Positions 2,480-30,228 of a DNA stretch of 64,000 nucleotides are shown here, in pieces; the first letter of the stretch is position 1; each line of letters begins with the position of its first letter. The stretch covers positions 4,726,335 through 4,790,334 of the forward strand of contig OZ240092.1 of assembly GCA_965197285.1 (NCBI GenBank), in the 5' to 3' direction. The notes below the pieces were generated by a model that did not search any database, had not been told where the DNA came from, and saw only the letters and a program-made list of their open reading frames with translations. Source of the DNA: Acidobacteriota bacterium. Lineage in GTDB: Bacteria; Acidobacteriota; UBA6911; RPQK01; CBDAPI01. The position numbers and the translations under genes are program-made.

Positions 2480-3616
2480 GTGAACCGGGAAACCTTTTCC
2501 TGTCTGGCGCTTTCACTGATTCCGGGTCTGGCAAGAAGAAAGATTCATCGGTTGATCGACAGTTGTGGCGCACCCAGCCGCATTCTGGAAGCCGGCAGGG
2601 AGGCGATGCTGAGGGCTGGACTGGCCGTTTCTGACATAAACTCGATTCTCTCCGGGAGTGTTCTAAAAGAGGCAAGACTCGAGGCTGAACGTGCCGGCAA
2701 GGCCGGGGTCGAAATCATCTCCGCATACGAAGAGGGCTTTCCACCGCTGCTGAAGGAAATCGATGACGCGCCCGTAGCCCTCTATTGCCTCGGCGATACC
2801 TCTGCTCTGCAGGGACCGGGGGTGGCCATTGTGGGTTCCCGGAAATGTTCTGTTTACGGCCGTGAAGTCAGTAGAAGATTCGCCGGCGAACTGGCCGCAG
2901 GCGGCCTCACCATCGTAAGTGGCCTGGCCCGGGGCATCGACTCGGCGGCCCACCTTGGAGCCGTGGGAGTGGAAGGCCGCACGGTTGGGGTGCTTGGCTG
3001 CGGCGTGGATGTCGTTTACCCAAGGGAGAATAAGAAGCTCTTTTCCCAGGTTCGCGAGTCGGGGTGTCTGGTCAGCGAGTTTCGGCTGGGAGCTTATCCG
3101 GTGCCCCGGAACTTTCCGGTTCGCAACCGCTTGATCAGCGGGCTCTGCTACGGAACCGTGATTGTTGAGGCGACCGAGTTCTCCGGATCTCTGATTACGG
3201 CCCGCCTGTCGCTGGAGCAGAACCGTGAAGTCTGGGCCATCCCGGGAAACATCACGTCTGCACGGAGCTACGGGCCCAACTATCTGATCAGGCAGGGCGC
3301 CAGGCCGGCCCTTTGCCCCCAGGATGTCCTGGAAGATCTTCCGGCGGACGTGCTGGTTGGTCTCAAGCAGCGAGCCGAGCGGGGTCGGGCCCTTCACGCC
3401 AGCGGCACGAAACACTGGAACGTGCGTCCCCATCTGAACGACGCGGAAAAGGAAATTTTGAAACTTCTGGCCGTGGACCGCGCTCTTCACATAGATTGGA
3501 TCGTCGACCAGATCGACGAAAAGCCCGAGCGTCTGATCGCGATTCTGCTGGACCTGGAACTAAAGGGGCTGATCCGGCAGTTACCGGGAAAGCGGTTCTC
3601 CGTGAGGCTGTCCTAG
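2480..3616 (+). CDS. dprA: DNA processing protein DprA (Smf)
   Basis: 378 aa. Rossmann-like DprA core (VAIVGSRKCSVYGREV...GLARGIDSAAH...GVDVVYPREN) plus a C-terminal winged-helix tail. It sits in the conserved position next to topA. Confidence 0.85.
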   Translation: MNRETFSCLALSLIPGLARRKIHRLIDSCGAPSRILEAGREAMLRAGLAVSDINSILSGSVLKEARLEAERAGKAGVEIISAYEEGFPPLLKEIDDAPVALYCLGDTSALQGPGVAIVGSRKCSVYGREVSRRFAGELAAGGLTIVSGLARGIDSAAHLGAVGVEGRTVGVLGCGVDVVYPRENKKLFSQVRESGCLVSEFRLGAYPVPRNFPVRNRLISGLCYGTVIVEATEFSGSLITARLSLEQNREVWAIPGNITSARSYGPNYLIRQGARPALCPQDVLEDLPADVLVGLKQRAERGRALHASGTKHWNVRPHLNDAEKEILKLLAVDRALHIDWIVDQIDEKPERLIAILLDLELKGLIRQLPGKRFSVRLS

Positions 3617-3619
3617 ACC

Positions 3620-4265
3620 CGTAAGGAGTCCCCCCGGCTCTGCCGGGGAGGCAGCCAGAGTTTGACAGTTCCGGGAATAGGTGAAAAAACTCCCTTCCGT
3701 GAGCCGAGCAAAGCATCACGAAAAGGAGTTTTATGAGTAACTACAAGAGCTTACAGCATACAAAATGGGAGTGTAAGTACCATGTGGTGTTCATCCCCAA
3801 GTACCGCAAGAAGTTGATTTATGGGGAGCTGCGCAGACATCTCGGTCAGGTGCTGCGACGGTTGGCTGGGCAGAAGGAAAGCTTGATTGAAGAGGGCCAC
3901 CTGCTGCCGGATCACGTGCACGTGATGATCTCGATTCCGCCAAAGTTTTCTGTGGCGCAGGTGATCGGGCACATCAAAGGGAAAAGCGCCATCCACATTG
4001 CGAGGAACTTTTCAGAGAGTCGGCGTAACTTTGTTGGACAGCACTTCTGGGCTCGCGGATACTTCGTATCGACGGTGGGTCGGGATGAGAAAGTGATTCG
4101 TGAGTATATCCGGCGGCAAGAAGCAGAAGATCGTCGCCAGGATCAGCTCAGGCTGCTGTAGCCAAGCCACCTGTAGGTGGCACAAGTGGCCGCGGTAGCG
4201 GCAACGTCAAGTCCGCTTTGAGCGGCTCACAAGATTAAAGCCCCCGGCTTTGCCGGGGGATACTT
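3620..4265 (+). mobile_element. IS200/IS605-family element carrying tnpA only (IS200 type), inserted between dprA and topA
   Basis: A Y1 HUH transposase ORF is flanked by subterminal perfect palindromes: CCCCGGCTCTGCCGGGG at 3632-3648 and CCCCCGGCTTTGCCGGGGG at 4241-4259, plus CCACCTGTAGGTGG at about 4168-4181. These are typical IS200 end hairpins. The boundaries are approximate. Confidence 0.7.
3733..4161 (+). CDS. tnpA: IS200/IS605 family transposase TnpA (Y1 HUH transposase)
   Basis: 142 aa. HUH motif HLLPDHVHVMISIPPK and the catalytic Tyr region ...GQHFWARGYFVSTVG. No tnpB is present downstream. Confidence 0.85.
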   Translation: MSNYKSLQHTKWECKYHVVFIPKYRKKLIYGELRRHLGQVLRRLAGQKESLIEEGHLLPDHVHVMISIPPKFSVAQVIGHIKGKSAIHIARNFSESRRNFVGQHFWARGYFVSTVGRDEKVIREYIRRQEAEDRRQDQLRLL

Positions 4266-4428
4266 ACTGTAGGTACTAGCGTCGGGCAACTCTGCATCGG
4301 GGCGGGGTGTTTGGATCAAATGTCGGCCTTTCACTGACTCAGATGCAGACCTATGCTATAGATTAAATTAAGGAGCTTCGAGCAGCTGTGAACGAACGAG
4401 AACCAATTTGGGGGAGGAATGAACGCTG

Positions 4429-6852
4429 ATGCCTAAGTCGATGGTCGTGGTTGAATCGCCAGCCAAGGCCCGGACGATTGAGCGCTACCTGGGTCGCGAC
4501 TATATCGTGAAGGCCTGTTCAGGGCATATCAAGGATCTCCCCAAGGACAAGCTGGCGGTCGAGGTCAAGCGCGACTTCGAGCCCACGTACAAGCTGATCC
4601 CCGGTAAAGAGAAGATTGTCCGCGACCTGAGGAAGGTCGCCCGCCGGGCCGACACGATCTATCTTGCGGCGGATCCGGATCGCGAGGGCGAGGCCATTTG
4701 CCAGCACCTGGCCGAAGAACTCAAGAAGTCCAAAGGTCAGGAGATTCGGCGGGTTCTTTTCAACGAAATCACCAAGAAAGCGGTTCTGGAGGCTTTCGAC
4801 CGGGCCGGGAGCATTGATGCCGACAAGGTTGCGGCCCAGCAGGCTCGCCGAATTCTGGATCGTCTGGTCGGGTACAAGGTCAGTCCTCTCTTGTGGAGGA
4901 ACGTGCGGCGGGGGTTGTCGGCGGGGCGTGTCCAGTCCGTAGCGCTGCGCATGATCGTAGACCGTGAAAAGGAACGCGACGCTTTCGTCCAGGAGGAGTA
5001 CTGGAACTTCTCGGCCCGGTTACGGGCCGCAACGCCTCCGGCTTTCGTGGCGAGAGCCGTCAGGCTGGACGGCAAGAAGTTCAAGATCCCGAACCAGGAA
5101 GACGCCGAGCGCCTGCTGGCGGATCTGCGAGGGGGTGAATTTGTCGTCTCCTCGGTTCAGACGAAGAAAAAGACACGTCGGCCGGCAGCTCCCTTCATCA
5201 CCAGTACGCTGCAACAGGAGGCGTCCCGGAGGCTGCGCTTCTCGGTAAAGAAGACAATGAGCCTGGCCCAGGATCTCTATGAAGGAATCCGGCTGGGCGA
5301 TCAGGGGAGAGTCGGGTTGATTACTTATATGCGAACCGACTCGACCCGGCTGTCACAACAGGCCCTGAGCGAAGTGCGCCAGTTCATCGAAGGGTCCTAT
5401 GGAAAGCGCTACGTGCCGTCCCGGCCGGCCGTCTTTCAAAAGAAAAAGGGGGCCCAGGACGCTCACGAAGCTATCCGGCCGACCTCTGCCGTGCGAACTC
5501 CCGAGGCTTTGAGGGGCGTGCTCACGCGCGACCAGTTGAGACTCTACGAATTGATCTGGAGGCGCTTCGCGGCCTGTCAGATGCAGCCGGCCCTCTTCGA
5601 CCGGACTGAGATTGAGATCAAAGCTCCGAGAACCCTGTTCAGGGCCACCGGTGACGTTCTCAAGTTCGACGGGTTCCTCAAGGTCTACGAGGTGAAACCC
5701 GATAAGAAGGGCGATGGGAACGAGGCGGGTGAAGAGGCGCGACTTCCGAGGGTTCAAGCGGGTGAAGTCCTTTCCGTGCTCGAGCTCCTGCACGAGCAGA
5801 AGTTCACGCAGCCCCCTCCCCGCTATTCCGAGGCGACCCTGGTCAAGGCCCTTGAGGAGAGGGGGATCGGCCGTCCCTCCACTTACGCTCAGACCCTGAG
5901 CAAGATTCAGGATCGGGAGTACGTGGCCAGGAAGGAACGCAAGTTCATTCCCACCGAAACCGGGACGGTCGTTTCCGAACTGCTGGTGAATCACTTCGAA
6001 GATCTCTTCGACTACGATTACACGGCGCGCCTGGAGGAGGAACTGGACAACATCGAGAGGGGAGATCGAGACTGGGTGGACGCCCTGCGCACCTTCTACC
6101 AGGGTTTCTCGAGGGAACTGGCGGAAGCTTCAGAGCGCATGAAGAACCTGAAGAGGGAGGAGATTCCGGCTGGCATCGATTGCGATAAATGCGGCTCTCC
6201 CATGGTTGTGAAATGGGGGCGCTTCGGCCGTTTCATCGCCTGCGGGAACTACCCGGAGTGCAGGAACACGCGAGAACTGCCAAGAGAAGAGACCGATAGT
6301 GAGCCTGCACTGGACGATCAGACCTGTGACAAATGCGACCGCCCGATGGTCAAAAAGCGCGGGCGGTTCGGGGAGTTCCTGGCATGTTCCGGGTACCCGG
6401 AATGCCGCAACACCCGGCGCATCGTCCAGGTCGGCGACCACGTCGAGGTAAAGACCGACAGGAAGCTGGATGAGCAGTGCCCCAAGTGCGGGGAGCATCT
6501 GGTGGCCAAGCAGGGGCGCTTCGGCGAGTTCGTGGCCTGCAGCGGTTATCCTGACTGCCGCTATATTCGCCGTGAGACTACCGGCGTCACGTGCTCGAAG
6601 TGCAAAAAAGGGGAGATGATACAGCGCAAGTCGAAGCGAGGTCGCGTCTTTTACAGCTGCGATCGATACCCGAAATGCAAAAACCTGCTCTGGCAAAAAC
6701 CCGTGCCGGAACCCTGCCCGCAGTGCGAGAGCCCTTTTCTGCTTGAACGTCAGACGAAGCGCGAGGGCCTGATCCGGATCTGCAGCGACAAGAAATGCGA
6801 TTACAAACGGGTCCTTGATCAACCCGAGACCCCCGTCGAGCAGCCGACCTGA
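4429..6852 (+). CDS. topA: DNA topoisomerase I with four C-terminal C4 zinc-ribbon repeats
   Basis: 807 aa. TOPRIM N-terminus (MVVVESPAKARTIERYLG), the active-site region, and four repeats of C-x2-C...GRFG-F-AC-GYP-C zinc ribbons. Confidence 0.9.
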   Translation: MPKSMVVVESPAKARTIERYLGRDYIVKACSGHIKDLPKDKLAVEVKRDFEPTYKLIPGKEKIVRDLRKVARRADTIYLAADPDREGEAICQHLAEELKKSKGQEIRRVLFNEITKKAVLEAFDRAGSIDADKVAAQQARRILDRLVGYKVSPLLWRNVRRGLSAGRVQSVALRMIVDREKERDAFVQEEYWNFSARLRAATPPAFVARAVRLDGKKFKIPNQEDAERLLADLRGGEFVVSSVQTKKKTRRPAAPFITSTLQQEASRRLRFSVKKTMSLAQDLYEGIRLGDQGRVGLITYMRTDSTRLSQQALSEVRQFIEGSYGKRYVPSRPAVFQKKKGAQDAHEAIRPTSAVRTPEALRGVLTRDQLRLYELIWRRFAACQMQPALFDRTEIEIKAPRTLFRATGDVLKFDGFLKVYEVKPDKKGDGNEAGEEARLPRVQAGEVLSVLELLHEQKFTQPPPRYSEATLVKALEERGIGRPSTYAQTLSKIQDREYVARKERKFIPTETGTVVSELLVNHFEDLFDYDYTARLEEELDNIERGDRDWVDALRTFYQGFSRELAEASERMKNLKREEIPAGIDCDKCGSPMVVKWGRFGRFIACGNYPECRNTRELPREETDSEPALDDQTCDKCDRPMVKKRGRFGEFLACSGYPECRNTRRIVQVGDHVEVKTDRKLDEQCPKCGEHLVAKQGRFGEFVACSGYPDCRYIRRETTGVTCSKCKKGEMIQRKSKRGRVFYSCDRYPKCKNLLWQKPVPEPCPQCESPFLLERQTKREGLIRICSDKKCDYKRVLDQPETPVEQPT

Positions 6853-10934: not shown

Positions 10935-12200
10935 ATGAAGCGTGTGACGCTGGCAGTTGCCTTTCTCCTGACCCCGAACGGTTGTCAGGATGACTTCGAC
11001 ACGGGCATCGTCGTGTCAACTGTCGCTGGGTCCAGTGAGGCGGCATTTTTTCAAGGGGGCCAGGACTGGCCCCAGTGGCGGGGCCCGCGCCGGGATGGGG
11101 TCAGCTTCGAACAGGGCTTGGTGCGCAGCTGGTCGGAAGGCGGTCCCACCGAGATTTGGAGGCGCGCCATCGGAACCGGCTATTCCGGGTTGGTGGTGAG
11201 CGGGACCCGTCTCTACACACTCGATCAAGATGGGGATGAGTCTTTGGTGGCCTTCAGTGCCGTGAACGGCCAGGAACTGTGGCGACTTTCGCTGGGCGGT
11301 GGTTTCTCGAGCGGTCAGGGCGATGGGCCACGGGGTACCCCGGCCGTCGACGGGGACCTGGTGTTTGCCGTGAGCGGACGCGGCACGTTGACGGCCGCCG
11401 AGCGCAGCAGCGGCCGCCAGGTCTGGAAGCACGACCTGCCCCGGGAATTCGATAGTGAACCGCCGTACTGGGGTTTTTCCACTTCCCCTCTGGTCAAGGG
11501 CGACCTGGTGCTGGTGGAGCCTGGAGGACGGGGAGGGGGCTCCCTGGTTGCTTTTCGAAAAGATGACGGGAAGCTTGTCTGGAAAAGCCACGGCGATCCA
11601 GCCGGTTACTCTTCACCTCTGGGCGTCGAATTCAGGGGCCAGTCTCAGGTTCTCTTTTTCACGGCTAAAAATCTCCTTTCGGTAACCCTGGATGGAGGAA
11701 GGGTCCTATGGCAGGTTCCGTGGACCACCAGTTACGATGTCAACGCAGCTACGCCGATATGGATCCCCCCCAACCGAGTTTTCATCTCTTCCGACTACGG
11801 TGTCGGCGGAGCGGTCTTCGAAGTGCAGGAGAGCGGCGCTCCCCGGCAGGTCTGGAAGAACAAGGAGATGCGCAATCATTTCGGCACCTGCGTGTATCTA
11901 AATGGTTTCCTGTACGGATTCGATAAGGCCACGCTAAAGTGCATCGACGCTTTGGATGGATCCGTGAAATGGCGGACCCGGGGACTGGGCCGGGGTTCTC
12001 TGATTTCCGCAGACGGTATGTTGATCGTGCTGGGGGAACGAGGGCAACTTGTTCTTGTAGAAGCCACGCCTGGAGCCTACAACGAGCTCTCACGCGCCCA
12101 GGTGCTCAAAGGCAAGTGCTGGACCTCACCCACCCTCGCCCACAAAAAGCTCTACCTGAGAAATCAGAAAGAAATCGTCTGCCTGGACTTACAGGGGTGA
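10935..12200 (+). CDS. PQQ-like beta-propeller repeat protein (BamB/YVTN-like), secreted
   Basis: 421 aa. Signal peptide, then the diagnostic WPQWRGPRRDG start and repeated blades (...LYTLDQDG..., ...VNGQELWR...). Confidence 0.65.
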   Translation: MKRVTLAVAFLLTPNGCQDDFDTGIVVSTVAGSSEAAFFQGGQDWPQWRGPRRDGVSFEQGLVRSWSEGGPTEIWRRAIGTGYSGLVVSGTRLYTLDQDGDESLVAFSAVNGQELWRLSLGGGFSSGQGDGPRGTPAVDGDLVFAVSGRGTLTAAERSSGRQVWKHDLPREFDSEPPYWGFSTSPLVKGDLVLVEPGGRGGGSLVAFRKDDGKLVWKSHGDPAGYSSPLGVEFRGQSQVLFFTAKNLLSVTLDGGRVLWQVPWTTSYDVNAATPIWIPPNRVFISSDYGVGGAVFEVQESGAPRQVWKNKEMRNHFGTCVYLNGFLYGFDKATLKCIDALDGSVKWRTRGLGRGSLISADGMLIVLGERGQLVLVEATPGAYNELSRAQVLKGKCWTSPTLAHKKLYLRNQKEIVCLDLQG

Positions 12201-12204
12201 TCCC

Positions 12205-13830
12205 AGATTGCGCGCTCATTAAAGGACTAAGCTGAAACTTGATTTGCCACCTCCATCGGAACAAGAGCGTAACCCATTGATTTTGCGACCTTTTGAGCGT
12301 ACTTGAGCCGATTCTGCTGGAAACGTGCCTCATAGGTCTCAGCTCCCTGATCAACGTACTCCTGACCGTATTTCAGTGCCCGATAAATGTGTTCGCAGAG
12401 CTTGCGCGCAGTGGCTCCAATGGCGATGGACATGCCTTTGCGCTGAGCCATTCTCCGATAGTAGGCACCCAATGCTGTTGAGGAATACTTCAGAGACAGA
12501 GACGCCATGCGAAGGGTGCAGGCAATTCGGGTCGATCCCAGGCCCCTTCCACGACGCTTGCGGCTTTTGCCGGCAGAACGATCCAAGGGGGTGCAAACCT
12601 TGAGCCAGGATGCAAAGTGCTTGGTGGAGGGAAAACGCTGGATGTCGAATCCTACTTCACTGACTGCGGTCAATGCGGCTTCTGGGCCGATGGCGTCGAT
12701 TCGGGTCAGGTCGACCCCTGTAAATCGCCACAGAGCCGTGCGCAGTTCGTGATATCCCTGTCGTTTGATGTTCTTCTCTTTGGTGGGATTGGGATGTACC
12801 GGCACCGGCTGTTGTTGACGCTCGGGCGGGCTCAACTCTTCCAGCCGCTGGATGATCTTCTGCTCATAAACCTCCACCATCTTTTGCAGATACTCATAGT
12901 GCTCCAGATGCATCTGGAGATTGAACAAATGCTCGGGCATCCAGGTTCCCTTCAAGTGCTCGGAAATCTCTTGTTCACTTTTCTTACAGCGACGATCTCT
13001 CAACTGGGCCAGCTTCAGAGGATCTCGTTCTCCCGCCACGATGGCTCGTAGAATCGACATTCCCGTCACTCCCGTCACATCCGTCACGGCTTGGTGAACT
13101 TTGATATTCATCCAGTCCAGCGCCTTCTGCATGCGCTGCACCACCGATCCCAAGGCTTCTTTCAGGTTGGCCCGCTCTCGGGCCAGAGCTCGCAACTCCC
13201 GAATCACGGGCGAGGGGCGGAAACAGGCCTCCAGCAGTCCACATGCGTGTAGCTTCTGGATCCACTGGCAGTCCAACATATCGGTCTTCCGGCCGGGGAC
13301 CCGCTTGAGCTTGCGGGCATCCACCAGCACCACCTCGATGCCCCGTTCTTCCAGCAGATCGTACAAGGGATCCAATATGTTCCCGTACTCTCGATGGCCA
13401 CCGACTTCACTCTCTCTTGGTGCAGCCAGTCCGCCGCCGCCTCCAACTCTGACGTGATGGTCCCGAATACTCGCACATTCGGCACTCCCTCCTCCCTCTC
13501 GGGGGCACAGATCCAATGCTCTCGACTGCCGGCATCGACTCCTGCTACCCGGCTTTGGACGACCAGCAGCCCTCGGGCTGCTGGCTGTCTTTTTCGGCCT
13601 CGCTTCCTCTTGCTTTTCTTCTTGGCTTTCATGCTATCGTTGAACCTCCATCAGGAAATGTGCGAGCTGTGGCCCGAGGTGGCTATGCTGCTAAATCTAA
13701 GCTTCGGGATGGTCCCCTTGGGGGCCTCACCAGTGAATCATGGCCGACTCGGGACCAGGCTGAGATTCGAGCATTGATGCTTCAGTGTCTGCAGGGTCTT
13801 GACTGCCACAGCTCGCACATAGCCTATCGA
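12205..13830 (-). mobile_element. IS110-family insertion sequence, placed immediately downstream of the PQQ-repeat gene. Boundaries are approximate; this family lacks classical TIRs
   Basis: The transposase has a DEDD N-domain (VAGVDAGSREHWICAP...ESTGTYWIP) and the IS110/IS902 C-domain. The transposase stop at 12227 is 26 nt from the PQQ gene stop. The 5' leader contains a 14-bp inverted repeat, GTGCGAGCTGTGGC at 13661-13674 pairing with GCCACAGCTCGCAC at 13809-13822. Confidence 0.6.
12227..13632 (-). pseudogene. IS110 family transposase, interrupted by a 1-nt frameshift in a T run (the two ORFs 13204..13632 and 12227..13516 are one gene)
   Basis: Frame A reads ...ESTGTYWIP and then goes out of frame. 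Frame B continues ...ILDPLYDLLEERGIEVVLV... The sequence is ACATATTGGATCCCTTGTACGAT. Reading CCCTTTG in place of CCCTTG (one extra T; plus-strand AA at 13365-13366) gives the contiguous canonical ...TYWIPLYDLL. Confidence 0.75.
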
Positions 13831-13886: not shown

Positions 13887-14528
13887 ATGAGAATTGTTTT
13901 GGCGTCCGCCTCTCCTCGCCGGCGCAAGCTGCTCGAGAAACTGGGCAAGCCCTTTGACGTGCAGCCCTCCGGCACGGACGAGTCCGTTAAAGCCGAGGCA
14001 ACACCCGCTCAGACGATCCAGCAGATTGCGCTCCAGAAAGCAAAAGCCGTGGCCGCTATAGACAAGTCTGCGAGGCTCGTGATCGGGGCTGATACGGCGG
14101 TCATCATAGGAGATCGAATCCTGGGGAAACCTTCCGGCCCCGAAGACGCTGCGGCAATGCTGCGTAAGCTCCGCGGGCGGATCCACCACGTCGTGACCGG
14201 ACTGGCAATCGTCGAAAACGCGTCCGGCCGCACCCTGGTTTCACGAACCACGACCGAGGTCACAATGCGCTGTTACCCGGATCGAGAGATCAGCGAGTAC
14301 GTCTCCTCCGGAGAGCCCGACGACAAGGCTGGAGCCTACGCCGTTCAGGGTGCCGGAGGGAGGCTGGTAGAATCCGTCCGGGGCTGCTATTTCAACGTCG
14401 TGGGGCTGCCCCTGTGCGAGCTGAGCAGCATGCTCTCCGCAGTCGGCTTCCCGGTGCCTTCCGAATGCTACCTGCCCGATGGCGCCCCGTGCCCGGGAGG
14501 AATCTGGAATCTGGGCGAGATGCACTAG
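13887..14528 (+). CDS. maf: Maf-like nucleoside triphosphate pyrophosphatase (septum formation protein Maf)
   Basis: 213 aa. Starts MRIVLASASPRRRKLLEKLG; the Maf fold signature runs throughout. Confidence 0.85.
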   Translation: MRIVLASASPRRRKLLEKLGKPFDVQPSGTDESVKAEATPAQTIQQIALQKAKAVAAIDKSARLVIGADTAVIIGDRILGKPSGPEDAAAMLRKLRGRIHHVVTGLAIVENASGRTLVSRTTTEVTMRCYPDREISEYVSSGEPDDKAGAYAVQGAGGRLVESVRGCYFNVVGLPLCELSSMLSAVGFPVPSECYLPDGAPCPGGIWNLGEMH

Positions 14529-14566: not shown

Positions 14567-14851
14567 ATGGATGAAGTCACACTCGAATCAACCGTGGAAC
14601 TCCCGCCCAAAGTCACCTTTGGCAATATGGACGATGAAGTGGCCATTTTTCACGAGGAAACCGGCCAGTACTACGGGCTCGATGATGTGGGTAGTCGAGT
14701 GTGGAAAGCCTTTCACCAAACCGGTTCGCTCCGTGAAGCTCATACCGTGCTGATGAAGGAATTCGAGATCGAGGACAGCGATCTGGAAGAAGCCATCATC
14801 GAGTTCGTCAAGGAACTGGTTGAGCTGGAGCTCCTCGCGGTCAAGCCGTGA
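14567..14851 (+). CDS. PqqD-family RiPP recognition element (lasso-peptide B1-type chaperone)
   Basis: About 94 aa. Classic PqqD/RRE pattern ...GQYYGLDDVGSRVWKAFHQTGSLREAHTVLMKEFEIEDSDLEEAIIEFVKELVELELL. It lies 36 nt upstream of, and in the same frame as, the Asn-synthetase-like gene. Confidence 0.75.
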   Translation: MDEVTLESTVELPPKVTFGNMDDEVAIFHEETGQYYGLDDVGSRVWKAFHQTGSLREAHTVLMKEFEIEDSDLEEAIIEFVKELVELELLAVKP

Positions 14852-14887
14852 ACCGGGGGGAGACCCAGATGACTCGTAACGCTCGAC

Positions 14888-16612
14888 TTGCCAACTATCC
14901 CTGAAGACGATCGTCCGGCCAGTTGGCAGACCGGCACCTGCGGCCGGATTAACTGGCAGGTGCGGGTCGCGTCTAAGGGGGCCCTCCGGGAACCATCGCA
15001 TCCGATCCGAGTCCTGTTCGCTCGTGGACACTTTCTGAATGAGGCTCTACCTGCGTCCGGCTCAGGCCCGGGTTGGGAGCATCGCCAGCTGGAGACGCTG
15101 TACCTGCGGCATGGACACGGCCAGTTGAGCCGGCTTCTCGAAGGGGACCTTTCCTTCGCCCTGTGGGATGGCCGCGCGATGAGCCTGGTTCTCTCGACCG
15201 ATCGACTTGGTCTGCACCCCATCTACTACTACCGCCACAGCGACAGGTTGTTCGTTTCCTGGAAGGTGGAGGACCTCGTCCCGTACCTCCCCGACTCCCA
15301 ACCCGACATGAGAAGCCTTTCGGCTCACGTGGCGGGCTTTTTGCTGCCCGAGGGCCGGACGTTCTACGACGGAATTCAGAGAATCCCGGCAGGGATGATT
15401 GCGAGGGTGTACGAAGATGATCTTGAGCAGAAGAAGTACTGGAGCCTGGAAGGGTCGAGACCGGCACCGAGGGATGCTGAGGCCTGTGCCGGTGAGCTTA
15501 ACGAGCGTCTCCGCGAAGTGCACCGCAGCTGGCTTCGTGTGTTGCCCGCTCCCGTCGGCATCGCGCTCAGCAGCGGGTTGGATTCCGGCAGCGTCGCAGC
15601 CGTCGTGCGCGGTCTCGATTCCAGCCCATTGATTCGGGCTTTCTCATGGGTTCACCCGGGCTTGCCCGAGGCCGACGAATCGGCCGGGATCGAGGACGTG
15701 TGCCGGACCCTGAATCTGGACCTGACGCGGATTGAAGCGGACCGGCATTGGACGCTGTGTGACCCGCAAGGGCTGACGACTTCCATCCAGGGCCCGGAGG
15801 CTCACTACTACCGGGAGAGCTGGGAAGTGACGTTTCAGAGAGCGAAATCTCAGGGTCACCACTATCTGTTCTCCGGTGTCGGGGGGGACGAGTTGTTCGG
15901 GGGAATAAGTTCCTACACCGATCTATTCCTCTGCGGCCGCTGGTTTTCGCTGCTGCGGCAACTGCTTCGCGAACGCAGGGACGCCGGGTTCGGCCCGCGT
16001 TACATTTTCAGTTCTACCCTGAATCCGTGGCTGCGGAATCGGTTTCCCCGCTGGCAGCTAAGACGGATGAGGTTGCCTGTCTGGCTGACGGAGGCGACCA
16101 GAGAGCGGGTCCGGGGACTCTTGCTGCCGCCTTTTCATTCGAGGCGGGGTGACTTCGGCCGGCAGCTTCGCATCCGTTTCCTGCAGAACCTGGCCCGCAG
16201 CAGACAGATCCTGCAGGTTTCCAGGATCGGTGAGGTCGCCGGGCTGGGGATGATCCACCCCCTGCTGGACCGGCGGGTGGTCGAGTTCGCGGCCAGCTTG
16301 CCCGCTACCCAGAACTTTCATGCCGGGAAGGACAAAATGATCTTGAGACGAGCCTTCCAGGAAATCCTGCCGGCTCCCATCATCCAACGGAAACGAAAGA
16401 TCACCGTCGAGACCCTGTTTCATCGAGGATTGCGCGAACGGGAAACGGCAAAGGTATGGCCCTTGTTGCAGGATATGCGTGCCGCAGACCTGGGGCTTGT
16501 GGATCAGGCTTCTGTGCGCCACCAGTACCGTCAATACCTGAAGGGAGAGGGCAGCGCCCTTGGCATCTGGAATGCACTCACCGTCGAAGACTGGCTGCGG
16601 CGCTACTTCTGA
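14888..16612 (+). CDS. Asparagine synthetase-like protein, lasso-peptide cyclase (C) type, with a TTG start
   Basis: 574 aa. AsnB N-domain remnant (LSFALWDGRAMSLVLSTDRLGLHPIYYY) that lacks the Cys2 nucleophile. PP-loop LSSGLDSGSVAAVV. Downstream ...FSGVGGDELFGG. This architecture, paired with a PqqD protein, is the lasso cyclase signature. Confidence 0.7.
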   Translation: MPTIPEDDRPASWQTGTCGRINWQVRVASKGALREPSHPIRVLFARGHFLNEALPASGSGPGWEHRQLETLYLRHGHGQLSRLLEGDLSFALWDGRAMSLVLSTDRLGLHPIYYYRHSDRLFVSWKVEDLVPYLPDSQPDMRSLSAHVAGFLLPEGRTFYDGIQRIPAGMIARVYEDDLEQKKYWSLEGSRPAPRDAEACAGELNERLREVHRSWLRVLPAPVGIALSSGLDSGSVAAVVRGLDSSPLIRAFSWVHPGLPEADESAGIEDVCRTLNLDLTRIEADRHWTLCDPQGLTTSIQGPEAHYYRESWEVTFQRAKSQGHHYLFSGVGGDELFGGISSYTDLFLCGRWFSLLRQLLRERRDAGFGPRYIFSSTLNPWLRNRFPRWQLRRMRLPVWLTEATRERVRGLLLPPFHSRRGDFGRQLRIRFLQNLARSRQILQVSRIGEVAGLGMIHPLLDRRVVEFAASLPATQNFHAGKDKMILRRAFQEILPAPIIQRKRKITVETLFHRGLRERETAKVWPLLQDMRAADLGLVDQASVRHQYRQYLKGEGSALGIWNALTVEDWLRRYF

Positions 16613-16788
16613 GCATTTTCTGCGCGGCCGGTTGCACACCGGACCGGCGGAAGCCTGCGAAACTGAAATTGGGTGTCTGCAGCAACTCCAGCCTGGCCGG
16701 CCAGTCGCGGACGGCCCGTACTTGCCACGGTTCATTCAATCTGGTATCTGTACACCCGAATGTTGCAGGACCGATCTTTTTGACGGGC

Positions 16789-16999
16789 ATGTCCGACTCC
16801 GTAAGCACCCTGTGGCCCGCCTACTACCTTTTTGGATGCAGTGTTCGGAGCAATTTTCCCTTCAGCATCGAACTCCCTCCCTCTGAACAAGAACCGGACC
16901 TGACGCTCAGCTTTCATCCGGGCACGACGAGCGGCCTGCAGGACGGACTCGAACCCCTGTATGCGAGTGACCTCGTGAACGAGGCCGGCGTGGCTCTAG
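16789..16999 (+). pseudogene. 5' fragment of an HprK-like Ser kinase gene (lasso-peptide kinase type), cut off by the IS1380 insertion at 17000
   Basis: The frame is open from downstream of the cyclase stop; the first ATG is at 16789 (a TTG at 16669 is also possible). It reads ...LEPLYASDLVNEAGVALA and then runs into the IS, producing an IS-derived tail RIMQEP*. It is in frame with the 3' fragment once the IS and one TSD copy are removed. Confidence 0.65.
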
Positions 17000-18650
17000 C
17001 CCGGATTATGCAAGAACCGTAGTTCGGTGTTGAAAACGACTCGAGAAGTGGCCCAACTCGGAAGCGGGCAGGTGTGACAGGCGGATTTGCGAAGAATATG
17101 GGTTGGCGAGGCGTTTGAGTGGTTTGGGGAGTGAATTTCAGACAGATCTGGGCCTGGATGAGTGTCGGAAGCGGTTTTTCGGGGGAGCTGGGAAAAGCTA
17201 ACTGGAGTTCAGGCGACTCAAGACGAGGTGGAAGAGGGGTTGTTCGGGGAAGGCTGAGGAAAGATGGACCCAGATGCGTCGAGTGGTTTGTCGGATCCGG
17301 GCCCCAATCTTGAGGACCCGACGACGTAAGGTTTCGATTTCGAGCTTGTGCCAGGGGGTTCCGTGAAGATAGTCGCGCAGGCGCACGAACATCTGGTAAG
17401 CCAGTGCATGCAGGAGGAGTCGAAACTGATTGGCCAGGAATCGATGACAGCTGAGTCGGTCCATGCTCAGATGATTCTTGAAGGCCTTGATGAAGTTCTC
17501 GGTCTGCCCTCGGTTTGTGTAGTGGTCATAAAGTGATTGGGAGCAGAGATCGTCCCGGTTGGCAACTACAAAGCGACGATTGATGCCACGCTGATCGACC
17601 TCCACTTTGACAATGACGCGACGGGATCGATCCCAGCTGTGGGCTCGATAAAGAAACTCGTCAAACTGACGCTGTTTTTCCTCCAGCTCAAGGAACCTCA
17701 GCCGAGTCGAATCCAGCAGGGGCTCGACCACTCGCTGCAGGCGAGGGTTTCGACTTAACCCAATGACATACTGGAGTTTATTCTCTTCACATTCACAGAA
17801 CTCGTAGAGCCGAGGCGTGGCAAAGCCGCTGTCGGCCCGAATCTCAATCTCGACATCCGTCCCCACTGCTTGTCGGATGGCCTCCACGACTCGCTTCAGA
17901 ATGGGCACGATGTGAGAGGCAGCCCCCTTGTTGCCAGGTCTCAACACGGCACAGACCAGGTCTCCCGTGTCGGCATCGAAGATCAGCAAAGGATGCAGAA
18001 TGTGGTTTCGGTAATACCCGTGGTAGAAGGAGAACTCCTGTTGGCCGTGAGTGTGGTCGTCGGTACTGTCCAGATCCAGGATGATCTTGCTGGGACGTCT
18101 CTTCTTCAGGGAGCGCACATAACGGCCTGGCAGCCACCGGCTCAGACGCATCAGATCCTTCTTGGTGACGGAGTTCTCCAAGCGGGAAAAAGTCGGCTGG
18201 GTGGCCAAATCGGGATCGCTCTCTGGCAACTGATCACAGACTGTCTTGAGCATCGGATCCGAGCGCAGCGTATCGGCGTCATTACAGTCTTCGTAGCCGG
18301 CCACGATCTGCAAGACTCGTTGTCGGATCAACTTCAACAGGTCATGACGAACGTAGCGTCGGTCTCGACTTTCCGCAATACACGAACTGAAGCCCTCGCA
18401 CAATCGATGTTGACGATCCAGGGATCCAAACAACAACCATCCTGCGTCGGAAGTGAGGCTCCCCCCATCAAAACGCGTCGTGATCTTTCTGTGGCTGTGA
18501 AATGGCAGGGTATTCTGGCAGACTGCTTTCAACATTGCCGTAGCTCCTGTTTAGGGTCATTGTTTTTGTAAACCCTTTTATATCAGAGGGCTACGGCTTT
18601 TTCCTGGAGCCAGAATCTCACTCGGATTCAGATCTTTTGCATAATCCGGG
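17000..18650 (-). mobile_element. IS1380-family insertion sequence, copy 1 (1651 bp), flanked by a 4-bp direct repeat CTAG at 16996-16999 and 18651-18654
   Basis: The ends are CCCGGATTATGCAAGAA (17000-17016) and the reverse complement of CCCGGATTATGCAAAAG (18634-18650). They begin with CC, as in the IS1380 family. Perfect 4-bp target-site duplications lie on both sides. It contains a 445-aa DDE transposase. Confidence 0.85.
17198..18535 (-). CDS. IS1380 family DDE transposase
   Basis: 445 aa. The N-terminus LPFHSHRKITTRFDGGSLTSDAGWLLFGSLDRQHRLCEGF...QRVLQIVAGYEDCNDADTLRSDPMLK is typical of IS1380-family (DDE_Tnp_1-like) transposases. It is near-identical to the ORF at 28689..30029. Confidence 0.85.
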   Translation of the reverse strand: MLKAVCQNTLPFHSHRKITTRFDGGSLTSDAGWLLFGSLDRQHRLCEGFSSCIAESRDRRYVRHDLLKLIRQRVLQIVAGYEDCNDADTLRSDPMLKTVCDQLPESDPDLATQPTFSRLENSVTKKDLMRLSRWLPGRYVRSLKKRRPSKIILDLDSTDDHTHGQQEFSFYHGYYRNHILHPLLIFDADTGDLVCAVLRPGNKGAASHIVPILKRVVEAIRQAVGTDVEIEIRADSGFATPRLYEFCECEENKLQYVIGLSRNPRLQRVVEPLLDSTRLRFLELEEKQRQFDEFLYRAHSWDRSRRVIVKVEVDQRGINRRFVVANRDDLCSQSLYDHYTNRGQTENFIKAFKNHLSMDRLSCHRFLANQFRLLLHALAYQMFVRLRDYLHGTPWHKLEIETLRRRVLKIGARIRQTTRRIWVHLSSAFPEQPLFHLVLSRLNSS

Positions 18651-18654
18651 CTAG

Positions 18655-19424
18655 CCCGTCTGTACGAGCATCATGACGGGTATCTCCTCAGAATGGCGGG
18701 AGTTGCGGATTTCGGGATAGGCGAAAAACAGCTGCGATGCTTTCCCAGTAGCGAAAACATCAGCTCGATCGAGAGCCTTCTGCTGCAGGCAGCGATGAGC
18801 TTCTGGCTCGAGACCATCGGTCGTCCGGTTCTACACGCATCCTGCATCGCAGATGCCGACCGGGCCGCAGCCTTTCTGGCTTTCAGCGGCAGCGGGAAGA
18901 GCACTCTGGCGGCGGCCTTCCTGAAAGACGGGTACCGGCTGGTCTCAGATGATTCCCTTCCGGTTGAGATTCACGAGAAACAGGTTCTGGCCTGGCCTTG
19001 TCATCCCCGCATCAAGATGGCACCCGAGCAGGCTAGGTTGTTTCTAGACGAGGTGGATCACCTCCCACCTGCGGATGGTTTCTCGAGTAAGATCGGAGTC
19101 CCGGTCAGGGAAACCTGGTCGGGCAGCTTCGGGACATCTCCCCGAAGACTGGTGTGCTGCTATCTTCCGGAGCACGGGCCGGATCAGAGGGATGTCGTCA
19201 TCGAGCCGGTTCGGGGAGCCGCGGCGGTCATCGAGTTGGTCCGCCACTCGCTGGTTCCCCGGCTGACGGCGGGAGCCGGAATGCAGAAAGAGCGATTTCG
19301 CCTGCTGCACCGGATTGCCACGCGGCTGAAGGTGTGCCCGCCTGGCTTATCCGTCGGGAGTCGACTCCCTGCATGCCGTCCGGGAGGCCGTAATGGCCCA
19401 TCTGACAAGCCTCCCCTAGACTAG
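18655..19424 (+). pseudogene. 3' fragment of the HprK-like Ser kinase gene (listed ORF 18693..19424). The frame is open back to the IS junction
   Basis: HPr kinase C-domain-like P-loop and signature: AFLAFSGSGKSTLAAAFLKDGYRLVSDDSLPV. In-frame codons 18654-18692 (ARLYEHHDGYLLR) have no stop. Together with 16789..16999 they form a 981-nt (326-codon) ORF. Confidence 0.7.
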
Positions 19425-19487
19425 CCCGTGCTCGGGCCAGCCATCGCCCCCGTTTATGTGGCAGGCGCATTGCCGGCGGGGCGTTCG

Positions 19488-20669
19488 TCAGCTTCCACCC
19501 CTCAGACCGCCAAGGGCCAGACGAAGGGGCCTGAGCAGGCGGTAGAGTGGAAAGAGTCCCGGCGGCAGGGAAATCCACCTGCAGTCCCTGCTCGAAGGTG
19601 TCAGCAGAGACCTCTGCAGGTACCGGATCTGATCAAGCCTTCGCTCCCGGAGACGGAGTTTCCGGCCAAGGGGTTCCGGGAAGGGGCCGAGGCCTTCCAT
19701 CGATTCCAGTAAGGAACCTTCAATTTCCTGGGCCAGACGGTGAGCAGGCGCGTCAGTGCGCACGGTGGCGAACCACTCCTGCGGAAGGGAAGCGGAGAAC
19801 AGGCGGGCGGCCAACAGGGCGCCCACCCTCAGCATCCGAAGTCCCCCTCTCTCCCGAGCCCGGGTCTGCGCCTGCTTCCAATCCGCGTGGGAGAATTCGT
19901 GGAGGGCCCAGGCCAGGTCACAGATCCATTTGGGCGACGACCAGAGATGCTTTGCGCCGTGGGCGGCGATCAGCAGCAGGAGATCTCCCGCGGAAAGAGT
20001 ACGAAATTCATGACCCGAGATGGCAACTGCTCGTCTGTCGTTCCAGAGCTTCTCAAAGGGCAACTCAAGGGAGAAATATCGAGGCAGCGCTGCCCAGTGA
20101 ATCTCAACTGTCATGCGGGGGTCGTCGCGCGTCATCATGGCCTGATCCCACCACAGAAAACGCAAGAAGTCGGGTCGTGAGAAAAACTCCTTTAAGTGCC
20201 CGCGGTCCCATTCGGGCAACCAGTGGTCGTATCCACGACTGAGCAGGAGATGCAATACAGGCAAAACGTCCTGCCGATGAATCAGCAGGTCCAGATCATC
20301 GAAGCTTCTCGATCCCAGGTTGCGATAGCAGAGGGTGGCCAGGACAGGCCCCTTGACAGCCAGGACTCGGATATTGCTGTTCTCGATCTCCCGGCAGACT
20401 CGGATCAATTCACGAACTCGTATCAGATTGCGAAGATTGTTGCCGTGGAAAATGTGCGACAGCTTTTCCCGATTCTCAGGCGAGAGGCCGGGTCGGTCCT
20501 TGAGCCGCCATGCCACGATCGGAAGCAACCTGGCGTGCTCGGCCCGCTTCAGGAAATCCTCCCAGGCCGGCGCGAGCTTCGATTGTTGCTCGATCGCAGA
20601 AAAAGACGCGTCTGTCGGTCGCGGGGATGCGAGATCAAACAGAACCCGGGTCAAATCTGAATCAGGCAT
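19488..20669 (-). CDS. NTP_transf_5-type uncharacterised nucleotidyltransferase
   Basis: 393 aa. ...VLAVKGPVLATLCYRNLGSRSFDDLDLLIHRQDVLPVLHLLLSRGYD...VEIHWAALPRY matches the PF14907-like pattern. Its start is 2 nt from the acyl-CoA dehydrogenase stop. It is convergent with the kinase gene. Confidence 0.6.
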   Translation of the reverse strand: MPDSDLTRVLFDLASPRPTDASFSAIEQQSKLAPAWEDFLKRAEHARLLPIVAWRLKDRPGLSPENREKLSHIFHGNNLRNLIRVRELIRVCREIENSNIRVLAVKGPVLATLCYRNLGSRSFDDLDLLIHRQDVLPVLHLLLSRGYDHWLPEWDRGHLKEFFSRPDFLRFLWWDQAMMTRDDPRMTVEIHWAALPRYFSLELPFEKLWNDRRAVAISGHEFRTLSAGDLLLLIAAHGAKHLWSSPKWICDLAWALHEFSHADWKQAQTRARERGGLRMLRVGALLAARLFSASLPQEWFATVRTDAPAHRLAQEIEGSLLESMEGLGPFPEPLGRKLRLRERRLDQIRYLQRSLLTPSSRDCRWISLPPGLFPLYRLLRPLRLALGGLRGGS

Positions 20670-28573: not shown

Positions 28574-30228
28574 CCCGGATTATGCAAGAGATCTAAATTC
28601 AAGTGAGATTTGGGCCCAGAAAAAAGGCCGTAGCTCTCTGATATAAAAGGGTTTAGAGAAACAAAGACCCTAAACAGGAGCTACGGCAATGTCAAAAACA
28701 GTCTGCCAGAATACCCTGCCATTTCATAGCCACAGAAACATCACGGCTCGTTTTGATGGGGGGAGCCTCACTTCCGACGCAGGATGGTTGTTGTTTGGAT
28801 CCCTGGATCGTCAACATCGATTGTGCGAGGGCTTCAGTTCGTGTATTGCGGAAAGTCGAGACCGACGCTATCACGTTCGTCATGACCTGTTGAAGTTGAT
28901 CCGACAACGAGTCTTGCAGATCGTGGCCGGCTACGAAGACTGTAACGACGCCGATACGCTGCGCTCGGATCCGATGCTCAAGACAGTCTGTGATCAGTTG
29001 CCAGAGAGCGATCCCGATTTGGCCACCCAGCCGACTTTCTCCCGCCTGGAGAACTCCGTCACCAAGAAGGATCTGATGCGTCTGAGCCGGTGGCTGCCAG
29101 GCCGTTATGTGCGCTCCCTGAAGAAGAGACGTCCCAGCAAGATCATCCTGGATCTGGACAGTACCGACGACCACACTCACGGCCAACAGGAGTTCTCCTT
29201 CTACCACGGGTATTACCGAAACCACATTCTGCATCCTTTGCTGATCTTCGATGCCGACACGGGAGACCTGGTCTGTGCCGTGTTGAGACCTGGCAACAAG
29301 GGGGCTGCCTCTCACATCGTGCCCATTCTGAAGCGAGTCGTGGAGGCCATCCGACAAGCAGTGGGGACGGATGTCGAGATTGAGATTCGGGCCGACAGCG
29401 GCTTTGCCACGCCTCGGCTCTACGAGTTCTGTGAATGTGAAGAGAATAAACTCCAGTATGTCATTGGGTTAAGTCGAAACCCTCGCCTGCAGCGAGTGGT
29501 CGAGCCCCTGCTGGATTCGACTCGGCTGAGGTTCGTTGAGCTGGAGGAAAAACAGCGTCAGTTTGACGAGTTTCTTTATCGAGCCCACAGCTGGGATCGA
29601 TCCCGTCGCGTCATTGTCAAAGTGGAGGTCGATCAGCGTGGCATCAATCGTCGCTTTGTAGTTACCAACCGGGACGATCTCTGCTCCCAATCACTTTATG
29701 ACCACTACACAAACCGAGGGCAGACCGAGAACTTCATCAAGGCCTTCAAGAATCATCTGAGCATGGACCGACTCAGCTGTCATCGATTCCTGGCCAATCA
29801 GTTTCGACTCCTCCTGCATGCACTGGCTTACCAGATGTTCGTGCGCCTGCGCGACTATCTTCACGGAACCCCCTGGCACAAGCTCGAAATCGAAACCTTA
29901 CGTCGTCGGGTCCTCAAGATTGGGGCCCGGATCCGACAAACCACTCGACGCATCTGGGTCCATCTTTCCTCAGCCTTCCCCGAACAACCCCTCTTCCACC
30001 TCGTCTTGAGTCGCCTGAACTCCAGTTAGCTTTTCCCAGCTCCCCCGAAAAACCGCTTCCGACACTCATCCAGGCCCAGATCTGTCTGAAATTCACTCCC
30101 CAAACCACTCAAACGCCTCGCCAACCCATATTCTTCGCAAATCCGCCTGTCACACCTGCCCGCTTCCGAGTTGGGCCACTTCTCGAGTCGTTTTTCAACA
30201 CCGAACTACGGTTCTTGCATAATCCGGG
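28574..30228 (+). mobile_element. IS1380-family insertion sequence, copy 2 (1655 bp), flanked by a 4-bp direct repeat TTAG at 28570-28573 and 30229-30232. It is inverted relative to copy 1
   Basis: The ends are CCCGGATTATGCAAGAG (28574-28590) and the reverse complement of CCCGGATTATGCAAGAA (30212-30228). Perfect TTAG duplications lie on both sides. It sits between convergent genes (PIG-L and bshC). Confidence 0.85.
28689..30029 (+). CDS. IS1380 family DDE transposase
   Basis: 446 aa. It differs from the copy-1 transposase by a 1-codon indel (RRYHVRHD versus RRYVRHD) and a few substitutions (L/V, A/T, N-terminus MSKTVCQ versus MLKAVCQ). Confidence 0.85.
   Translation: MSKTVCQNTLPFHSHRNITARFDGGSLTSDAGWLLFGSLDRQHRLCEGFSSCIAESRDRRYHVRHDLLKLIRQRVLQIVAGYEDCNDADTLRSDPMLKTVCDQLPESDPDLATQPTFSRLENSVTKKDLMRLSRWLPGRYVRSLKKRRPSKIILDLDSTDDHTHGQQEFSFYHGYYRNHILHPLLIFDADTGDLVCAVLRPGNKGAASHIVPILKRVVEAIRQAVGTDVEIEIRADSGFATPRLYEFCECEENKLQYVIGLSRNPRLQRVVEPLLDSTRLRFVELEEKQRQFDEFLYRAHSWDRSRRVIVKVEVDQRGINRRFVVTNRDDLCSQSLYDHYTNRGQTENFIKAFKNHLSMDRLSCHRFLANQFRLLLHALAYQMFVRLRDYLHGTPWHKLEIETLRRRVLKIGARIRQTTRRIWVHLSSAFPEQPLFHLVLSRLNSS

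Follow-up and report, generated by a model that had tools for sequence, protein, structure and literature searches.

The 64-kb stretch of Acidobacteriota DNA analysed here (contig OZ240092.1; referred to as the window; the genome as a whole has roughly 5.75 Mb) carries between positions 14567 and 20669 a cassette of four enzyme genes, identified from the open reading frame (ORF) listing and by profile searches: B1, encoding a recognition element (RRE) for peptides that are made on the ribosome and modified after translation (RiPPs), C, encoding an asparagine synthetase-like lasso cyclase, K, encoding an HprK-related kinase, and N, encoding a nucleotidyltransferase. We regard this locus as probably an incomplete and eroding lasso peptide cluster of the kinase/nucleotidyltransferase (K/N) subtype, i. 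e. a cluster of a known kind that has been inherited vertically at one site in a small clade of Acidobacteriota. As far as can be judged from its sequence, the cassette could not make a product alone in this genome: The 64 kb contain no precursor gene (A), the locus has no gene for the leader peptidase (B2), and K is broken. The original prediction of a lasso-type locus of this subtype, which had been made from the DNA alone, is borne out by the domain matches and by the context in which the cyclase subfamily occurs. The components of the cassette are the following:

14567-14851, plus strand: B1, intact gene for a RiPP recognition element of 94 aa, PqqD-like and stand-alone (Pfam PqqD, E=4.6e-13)

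14888-16612, plus strand: C, intact gene, with TTG as its start codon, for an Asn-synthetase-like lasso cyclase of 574 aa that belongs to a short 'C2-type' subfamily (Asn_synthase, E=1.5e-36)

16780-16999, plus strand: 5' part of K, HprK-related kinase, codons 1-73, ending in the first CTAG of a target duplication (K profile, 1.7e-21)

17000-18650, minus strand: IS1380-family element in K, 1651 bp, with the transposase at 17198-18535 (DDE_Tnp_1_4, 6.5e-143)

18655-19419, plus strand: 3' part of K with the Walker A motif GSGSGKST, frameshifted near its end (K profile, 3e-110)

19488-20669, minus strand: N, intact, convergent gene for an NTP_transf_5 nucleotidyltransferase of 393 aa (PF14907, E=2.4e-49)

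The two genes at the head of the cassette are real, and they are arranged as had been predicted, with C starting 36 nt behind B1 in the same frame. The top NCBIfam model for B1 is lasso_PqqD_Bac (50.6 bits, under the cutoff of 80), and the closest solved structure is the lasso RRE TbiB1 (PDB 5v1u, 1e-10; the PqqD protein of pyrroloquinoline quinone (PQQ) synthesis is found only at 0.39). Other relatives in the PDB are a 'lasso peptide biosynthesis PqqD family chaperone' (2e-7) and TfuB1. By its Pfam and PDB matches, B1 is the RRE of a lasso cluster, with the NCBIfam lasso_PqqD models ranking first though below their cutoffs. For the cyclase, the loss of the glutaminase cysteine and the retention of the PP-loop had been pointed out, and both were confirmed: The PP-loop SSGLDS occupies residues 228-233, the N-terminus reads MPTIPEDD without Cys2, and the sole cysteine nearby, C18, is not conserved among the orthologues. 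The best NCBIfam match of C is the lasso cyclase model NF033535 (174.7 bits, cutoff 525). In comparison with the profile of its own subfamily, C reaches 732 bits and retains every subfamily-invariant residue. PDB sequence searches with C, K and N returned generic AsnB, beta-lactam synthetase and HprK folds only.

The generic Pfam names of these proteins (Asn_synthase, GATase_7, PqqD) and the presence of a PQQ_2 beta-propeller gene at 10935-12200 might suggest that the two genes belong to primary metabolism and encode a true asparagine synthetase B and the PqqD protein of PQQ synthesis. The likelihood of this is negligible, and we consider it refuted. C lacks the N-terminal nucleophile cysteine and scores far below the cutoffs of the models for the true enzyme (137 against 267 bits for TIGR01536, and 57 against 499 for PRK09431), B1 resembles the lasso RREs and has no TIGR03859 match at E<=0.01, no pqqA-E genes are present in the window, and the propeller gene encodes a repeat protein rather than a biosynthesis enzyme. 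The original prediction had named two findings that would overturn it, a clustering of C with bona fide AsnB enzymes and an origin of the PqqD-like protein from a PQQ operon; neither applies.

An HprK-like kinase had been expected next to C. Homology to such kinases and the Walker A motif are indeed present; however, the gene consists of two pieces and contains an extra C. Apart from our own profile, K matches known families only weakly (TIGR04352 at 3.9e-10, and Hpr_kinase_C). The interruption is due to a complete IS1380-family insertion sequence (IS), in agreement with the earlier claim that such an element cuts the locus: The transposase matches DDE_Tnp_1_4 with 476 bits, the element has 14-bp terminal inverted repeats (CCCGGATTATGCAA), and the target CTAG is duplicated at 16996-16999 and 18651-18654. 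A second copy, 98.2% identical and in the opposite orientation, is located at 28574-30228. If the two pieces of K are joined across the element, they form an ORF of 329 aa that is 75-84% identical to K of the related loci L004 and L001 (we designate the loci used for comparison by L numbers). The extra C, in the run 19337-19339, appears as a 1-nt insertion in the alignment with L091 and L004 and shifts the last approximately 30 codons of K, and a further segment matching the K profile (7.6e-08) is found in another frame. This single base may be an assembly error, as the window and the near-identical L090 differ by one indel in 21.7 kb; the IS1380 insertion cannot be one. The position of the element differs among near-identical strains, and it must therefore have hit K very recently. 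The cassette in this genome is predicted to be unable to phosphorylate, with K inactivated by the IS1380 element and probably by the frameshift as well. N is intact: It contains the G-S...DxD motif of such enzymes (GSRSFDDLDLL), matches the N profile at 3e-186 and is encoded convergently to K as predicted; it is the PF14907 nucleotidyltransferase of the K/N subtype.

An observation of its own concerns the near-identical strain L091. At the site of the IS1380 insertion of the window, K of L091 (2360-2390) contains CTAGCTAG, i. e. both copies of the target duplication without the element, and the IS (3141-4800) is found 770 bp downstream, at a CTAG that overlaps the stop codon of K (window 19416-19419). 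This looks like an excision footprint followed by local re-insertion, or like a chimeric assembly at 4x coverage.

The leader peptidase was searched for with a hidden Markov model (HMM) built from 120 B2 proteins, which was applied unfiltered to every ORF of 40 aa or more in the six frames. Even at E<=10, neither the window nor any locus of its clade gave a match, and the positive controls L006/L007, L008, L095 and L037 were all recovered. In the relatives of the window, no B2 gene was present within 8-10 kb, and Pfam did not find Transglut_core3 (PF13471) in ten unannotated ORFs of the window. The original prediction that the window lacks a B2 gene therefore holds for the 64 kb. We also considered B2 as a hidden domain fused to N or K and rejected this, as none of the frames matched the B2 HMM; moreover, Pfam detected NTP_transf_5 alone in N of the window at E<=0.01 and in N of L004 at E<=1. 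Elsewhere in the genome, no B2 could be attributed to this organism among the best 120 of 2753 matches of the B2 profile to 5.8 billion proteins. The literature that we searched contained no description of lasso cassettes that lack B2.

Precursor genes were sought with regular expressions for lasso leaders in six frames and with leader HMMs of 7, later 18 sequences. No leader was detected in the 64-kb window, where the best match to the leader HMM had an E value of about 1, and no ORF there combines the leader pattern YxxPxLx3Gx5Tx with an Asp or Glu at core positions 7-9, so that the reported absence of a precursor from the window is upheld. Two small ORFs were rejected as candidates. The 11-codon upstream ORF at 14869 is not conserved (3 codons in L001/L010, absent from L004), and the ORF starting with GTG at 16673 overlaps a conserved non-coding block and has accumulated substitutions that are nearly all non-synonymous in its frame. 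This block can be described as follows:

16722-16784, plus strand: conserved non-coding block of 63 nt that lies upstream of K and overlaps its start codon (nucleotide conservation)

The block is highly identical at the nucleotide level in the window, L010, L004 and L011, the spacer flanking it is unalignable, and the substitutions are not 3-periodic. Its sequence follows the pattern TTGCCA-17 nt-TATCTG, and a scan of the C-K spacer for sigma-70 promoters with strict rules was negative; it is possible, as a guess, that the block is the promoter or operator of K.

The relatives of the cassette at the same chromosomal site reveal which of these deficits are shared. Close relatives of C (54-78% identity) occur in only a handful of metagenome-assembled genomes of Acidobacteriota; a scan of the GTDB genomes gave three close loci only, the remainder being generic AsnB-like genes. 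The slot is constant in all of them: One flank has EcsC, the PQQ_2 propeller and/or maf, the other an acyl-CoA dehydrogenase (ACAD), LarA-N, an SSF transporter and PIG-L. Together with the window, L001-L003, L004, L005, L010-L012 and L090-L093 represent seven lineages, and B2 is missing from the locus in every one of them. In L004, there is no IS nearby, and B1, C (with a B1-C gap of only 21 nt), K (329 aa) and N (393 aa) are all intact and syntenic; even so, both A and B2 are absent. Thus, the IS elements of the window did not remove A or B2, and the idea that such elements had boxed in the locus and taken away the missing genes is not supported.

L005 and L012, the deepest branch of the clade (54% identity), are the only ones to carry precursor genes. 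Their B1-C spacer of 446 nt contains two small genes, each preceded by a GGAG ribosome-binding site, which encode (leader and core separated by a slash) MDLKRAGKRFTRPAIRRYGGVDRLTR/SSPGESGQNTQGHIIYDSL and MKKPRKQNRKTFTQPRIHEYGDLRPLTQ/VTSIYDFG. Both leaders match the lasso-leader spacing YxxPxLx3Gx5Tx exactly; the cores are off-rule, as the Asp or Glu is at positions 5 and 17 in one and at position 6 in the other rather than at 7-9. The two strains are 99.8% identical, and the spacer of L012 differs from that of L005 by just two substitutions (L012 7647 and 7684; L005 9641 and 9678); they change Pro(-14) of a leader to Ser and Thr(-2) to Ile, i. e. two key recognition residues. It had been proposed that A and B2 might be found adjacent to the cassette in relatives. 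This is the case for A, which lies between B1 and C in L005/L012; B2 was encountered only in the far more distant loci L006, L098, L100, L104 and L106.

These distant loci belong to a cyclase subfamily that is larger than word-indexed homologue searches, which had suggested a tiny clade, would have made one believe. When 1.84 billion representatives were searched in full with HMMER, approximately 85 clusters (at 50% identity) were obtained with scores of 320-610 bits; their cyclases have about 560 aa, lack the canonical MSxIAG N-terminus and frequently contain an LPEADES motif. Below them, a continuum of canonical cyclases of 620-650 aa follows. We annotated 15 metagenomic loci of the subfamily (L097-L111) as well as L006 and L009 with our own profiles. 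The recurrent gene order is A-C-K-B1-B2, in some cases preceded by a second divergent Asn-synthetase (C1) and sometimes with N nearby; in L101 and L102 no B2 was seen in flanks of just 2-3 kb. The precursors outside the clade of the window obey the ring rule in 15 of 16 cases (Asp or Glu at core positions 7-9, mostly 8), and they have cores of about 18 aa with tails rich in Ser and Thr. L097, L100, L105 and L106 carry this cyclase as the only one, and the C-type enzyme must therefore be the ring-former. Since such loci with a single cyclase are lasso clusters, and since the other loci of the subfamily are complete lasso clusters, C of the window, with its PP-loop and without a glutaminase cysteine, is a genuine lasso cyclase from a subfamily that is associated with kinases. 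Moreover, the presence of A and B2 in these clusters indicates that the ancestors of the C gene in the window had A and B2 as well.

This context bears on the suggestion that the locus is an undescribed variant which uses the RRE/cyclase pair differently. According to this, the RRE would guide the Asn-synthetase homologue to activate a carboxylate of a leader-bearing peptide and to form another amide (for example by amidation, or by a linkage through a side chain or the C-terminus), so that no leader removal would be required. All seven loci of the clade lack B2, the L005 cores share the C-terminal motif I-Y-D-[FS]-[GL] in place of an Asp or Glu at positions 7-9, and in L006, L098, L101, L102, L104 and L111 a second divergent paralogue accompanies the cyclase, of which one member may perform a non-canonical step. 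We nevertheless find this explanation very unlikely, and it is the least favoured form of the original prediction: The usual clusters of the subfamily are normal lasso clusters that hold B2 and rule-conforming precursors with Asp or Glu at position 8 or 9, and in L097, L100, L105 and L106 the sole cyclase has to close the ring.

Other features of the subfamily loci deserve mention in their own right. The second divergent Asn-synthetase paralogue is encoded directly upstream of the precursor gene in L006 (2848-4524), L098, L101, L102, L104, L111 and L095 (1243-5038), and no description of two-cyclase lasso clusters of this type was found in the literature searched. In L006 (6438-7400), L009/L103 (2224-3225), L099, L105, L108 and L109, the RRE is fused to an N-terminal PRTase-like domain of about 230 aa, named so after weak matches to Pribosyltran and PRTase-CE; among these fusion loci, B2 was seen in L006 alone, most of the contigs being short. 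Finally, L094 (6708-11654) contains an N-C-A-K-B1 lasso set directly downstream of a block of polysaccharide-biosynthesis genes; its precursor is MPKSDK...YSRPELENLGGIRDLTR/MPGGSINVEGSSGKPHKQ, and the contig ends before a B2 gene could appear.

Within the clade of the window, signs of decay are widespread. In six of the seven lineages, K, N or C carries an inactivating lesion, and in these same assemblies the neighbouring housekeeping genes are undamaged:

Window and L090: K with the IS1380 insertion and the extra C

L091: K with a +4 CTAGCTAG frameshift

L001-L003 and L010: N interrupted by an IS

L011: N in three frames

L005 and L012: N in two frames

L092 and L093: C fragmented, K truncated beside a Y1 transposase gene

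Several observations weigh against the idea of a dying cluster. The pairwise ratios of non-synonymous to synonymous substitution rates (dN/dS) are 0.04-0.19 for B1, 0.19-0.28 for C, 0.15-0.24 for K and 0.18-0.35 for N, i. e. well under 1 and only about twice those of the flanking genes (0.06-0.16 for ACAD, EcsC and LarA-N; 0.23-0.25 for maf). The values are also low among the three species that lack the precursor (dS 0.5-0.9), and the enzymes must therefore have been kept long after B2, and mostly also A, had left the locus. A dead cluster would hardly have been maintained for so long, which points to partners that are encoded elsewhere. Moreover, the single-base frameshifts may be sequencing errors, as the assemblies are low-coverage long-read ones, and a B2 gene may be present elsewhere in the genome, as the analysis covered the 64 kb and, in the protein database, the best 120 of the 2753 B2 matches.

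The corresponding explanation is a functional dispersed system, in which B1, C, K and N work together with precursors and a B2 protein encoded elsewhere in the chromosome, e. g. by a second lasso cluster, and in which the IS1380 insertion is a recent accident of one strain. The purifying selection on all four genes among the species without A, the four intact ORFs of L004 and the different position of the IS in near-identical strains would all fit, and in some clusters of the subfamily B1 and B2 are indeed kilobases away from C or not seen within 2-3 kb (L112, L101, L102). Yet six of seven lineages have at least one disrupted cassette gene next to intact neighbours. In addition, no second C homologue could be attributed to the genomes of the clade among the matches listed, a test of limited sensitivity, and the only precursors that the clade has in cis break the ring-position rule, with P(-14)S and T(-2)I in one strain. 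On balance, we take a dispersed system to be unlikely, although it is the likeliest of the alternatives.

We therefore return to the incomplete, eroding lasso cluster. In a complete K/N cluster, as known from the literature, B1 would bind the YxxPxL leader of the precursor, K, aided by B1, would phosphorylate a Ser or Thr of the linear precursor, N would put a sugar or nucleotide-derived group onto that phosphate, B2 would cleave off the leader, and C would adenylate the Asp or Glu at core position 7-9 and close the isopeptide ring. The most economical reading of the clade is that B2 was lost from the locus first and the precursors thereafter, and that the enzymes remained useful for a long time and are now eroding. 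This long usefulness is most simply explained by partners encoded elsewhere, and the whole series is best read as enzymes that were functional until recently in a cluster that has eroded gene by gene. One might go further and assume that the B1-C-K-N set, under purifying selection across the clade, acts on substrates encoded elsewhere or on leader-bearing peptides without proteolysis, yielding an amide-linked, phosphorylated product that is not a lasso peptide. We give this little credence; if true, it would mean that a RiPP pathway derived from lasso clusters can do without the leader peptidase that defines the class.

Our analysis has consequences for genome mining. Tools that require both B2 and C will miss or mis-score loci of this kind, and an orphan set of RRE, cyclase and kinase genes needs to be placed in a comparative context before a new RiPP class is claimed for it. 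The series that leads from the intact L004 via the precursor-bearing, off-rule L005/L012 to the IS-hit or frameshifted copies offers a rare stepwise view of the decay of a RiPP cluster while its enzymes still look constrained. As a target for discovery, the wider cyclase subfamily with its paired Asn-synthetase paralogues and PRTase-RRE fusions is a better choice than the window itself.

In the vicinity of the cassette, one further gene had been thought to lie directly beside it:

12226-13632, minus strand: transposase gene of the IS110 family, located upstream of maf and outside the cassette (DEDD_Tnp_IS110 and Transposase_20)

This turned out to be incorrect, as maf (13887-14528) intervenes between the IS110 copy and B1. 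L090, which is near-identical, has an intact copy of 468 aa, from which the IS110 gene of the window differs by a 1-nt indel. The window is rich in IS elements, with the second IS1380 copy (28574-30228) and an IS200/IS605-type Y1 transposase gene (3733-4161) in addition to the IS110 gene. A recent horizontal transfer of the cassette was considered and is unlikely, given a GC content of 0.605 versus 0.594 for the window and the fixed synteny.

Phosphorylated lasso peptides are already known. In lasso clusters, the HprK-like kinases act on the linear precursor with its leader still attached and phosphorylate a Ser in it, a step for which B1 is required or which it speeds; for pseudomycoidin, the PF14907 nucleotidyltransferase attaches one or more hexoses to the phosphate, and N is in some cases fused to B2 (PMC8498205, PMC10368454). 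Clusters for phosphorylated lasso peptides have previously been reported in Acidobacteriaceae (PMC10368454), and the phylum is therefore not a novelty. With the clusters for phosphorylated or phosphoglycosylated lasso peptides (paeninodin pade, pseudomycoidin psm, Sphingobium syan and Bradymonas bsf), the window shares the enzyme set of B1, C, K and a PF14907 N, and the precursors of its relatives have the same YxxPxL...T(-2) leader and Ser/Thr-rich core tail. In contrast to these clusters, the window has no B2, precursor or ABC exporter, K is interrupted, and the order is B1-C-K with a convergent N; its cyclase belongs to the shorter subfamily (about 560 aa) without the MSxIAG N-terminus and scores 174 bits against the NF033535 cutoff of 525. 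A second similarity is that to the 'HPr-rel-A system' of TIGRFAMs (TIGR04352 kinase A and TIGR04353 PqqD-family chaperone), whose models are the best or near-best NCBIfam matches of K and B1; with 39 bits against a cutoff of 200 for K and 28 against 35 for B1, the cassette is not an equivalog of this system, which is not known to be defined by an Asn-synthetase partner. The metagenomic 'C2-type' clusters (L006, L097-L111) have the same cyclase subfamily as the window (33-38% identity, 340-800 bits to the profile), the same types of K and B1, and the same leader family. Unlike the window, they have kept A and, in five cases (L006, L098, L100, L104, L106), also B2, their usual order is A-C-K-B1-B2, and they often possess a second Asn-synthetase paralogue upstream or a PRTase-like-RRE fusion.

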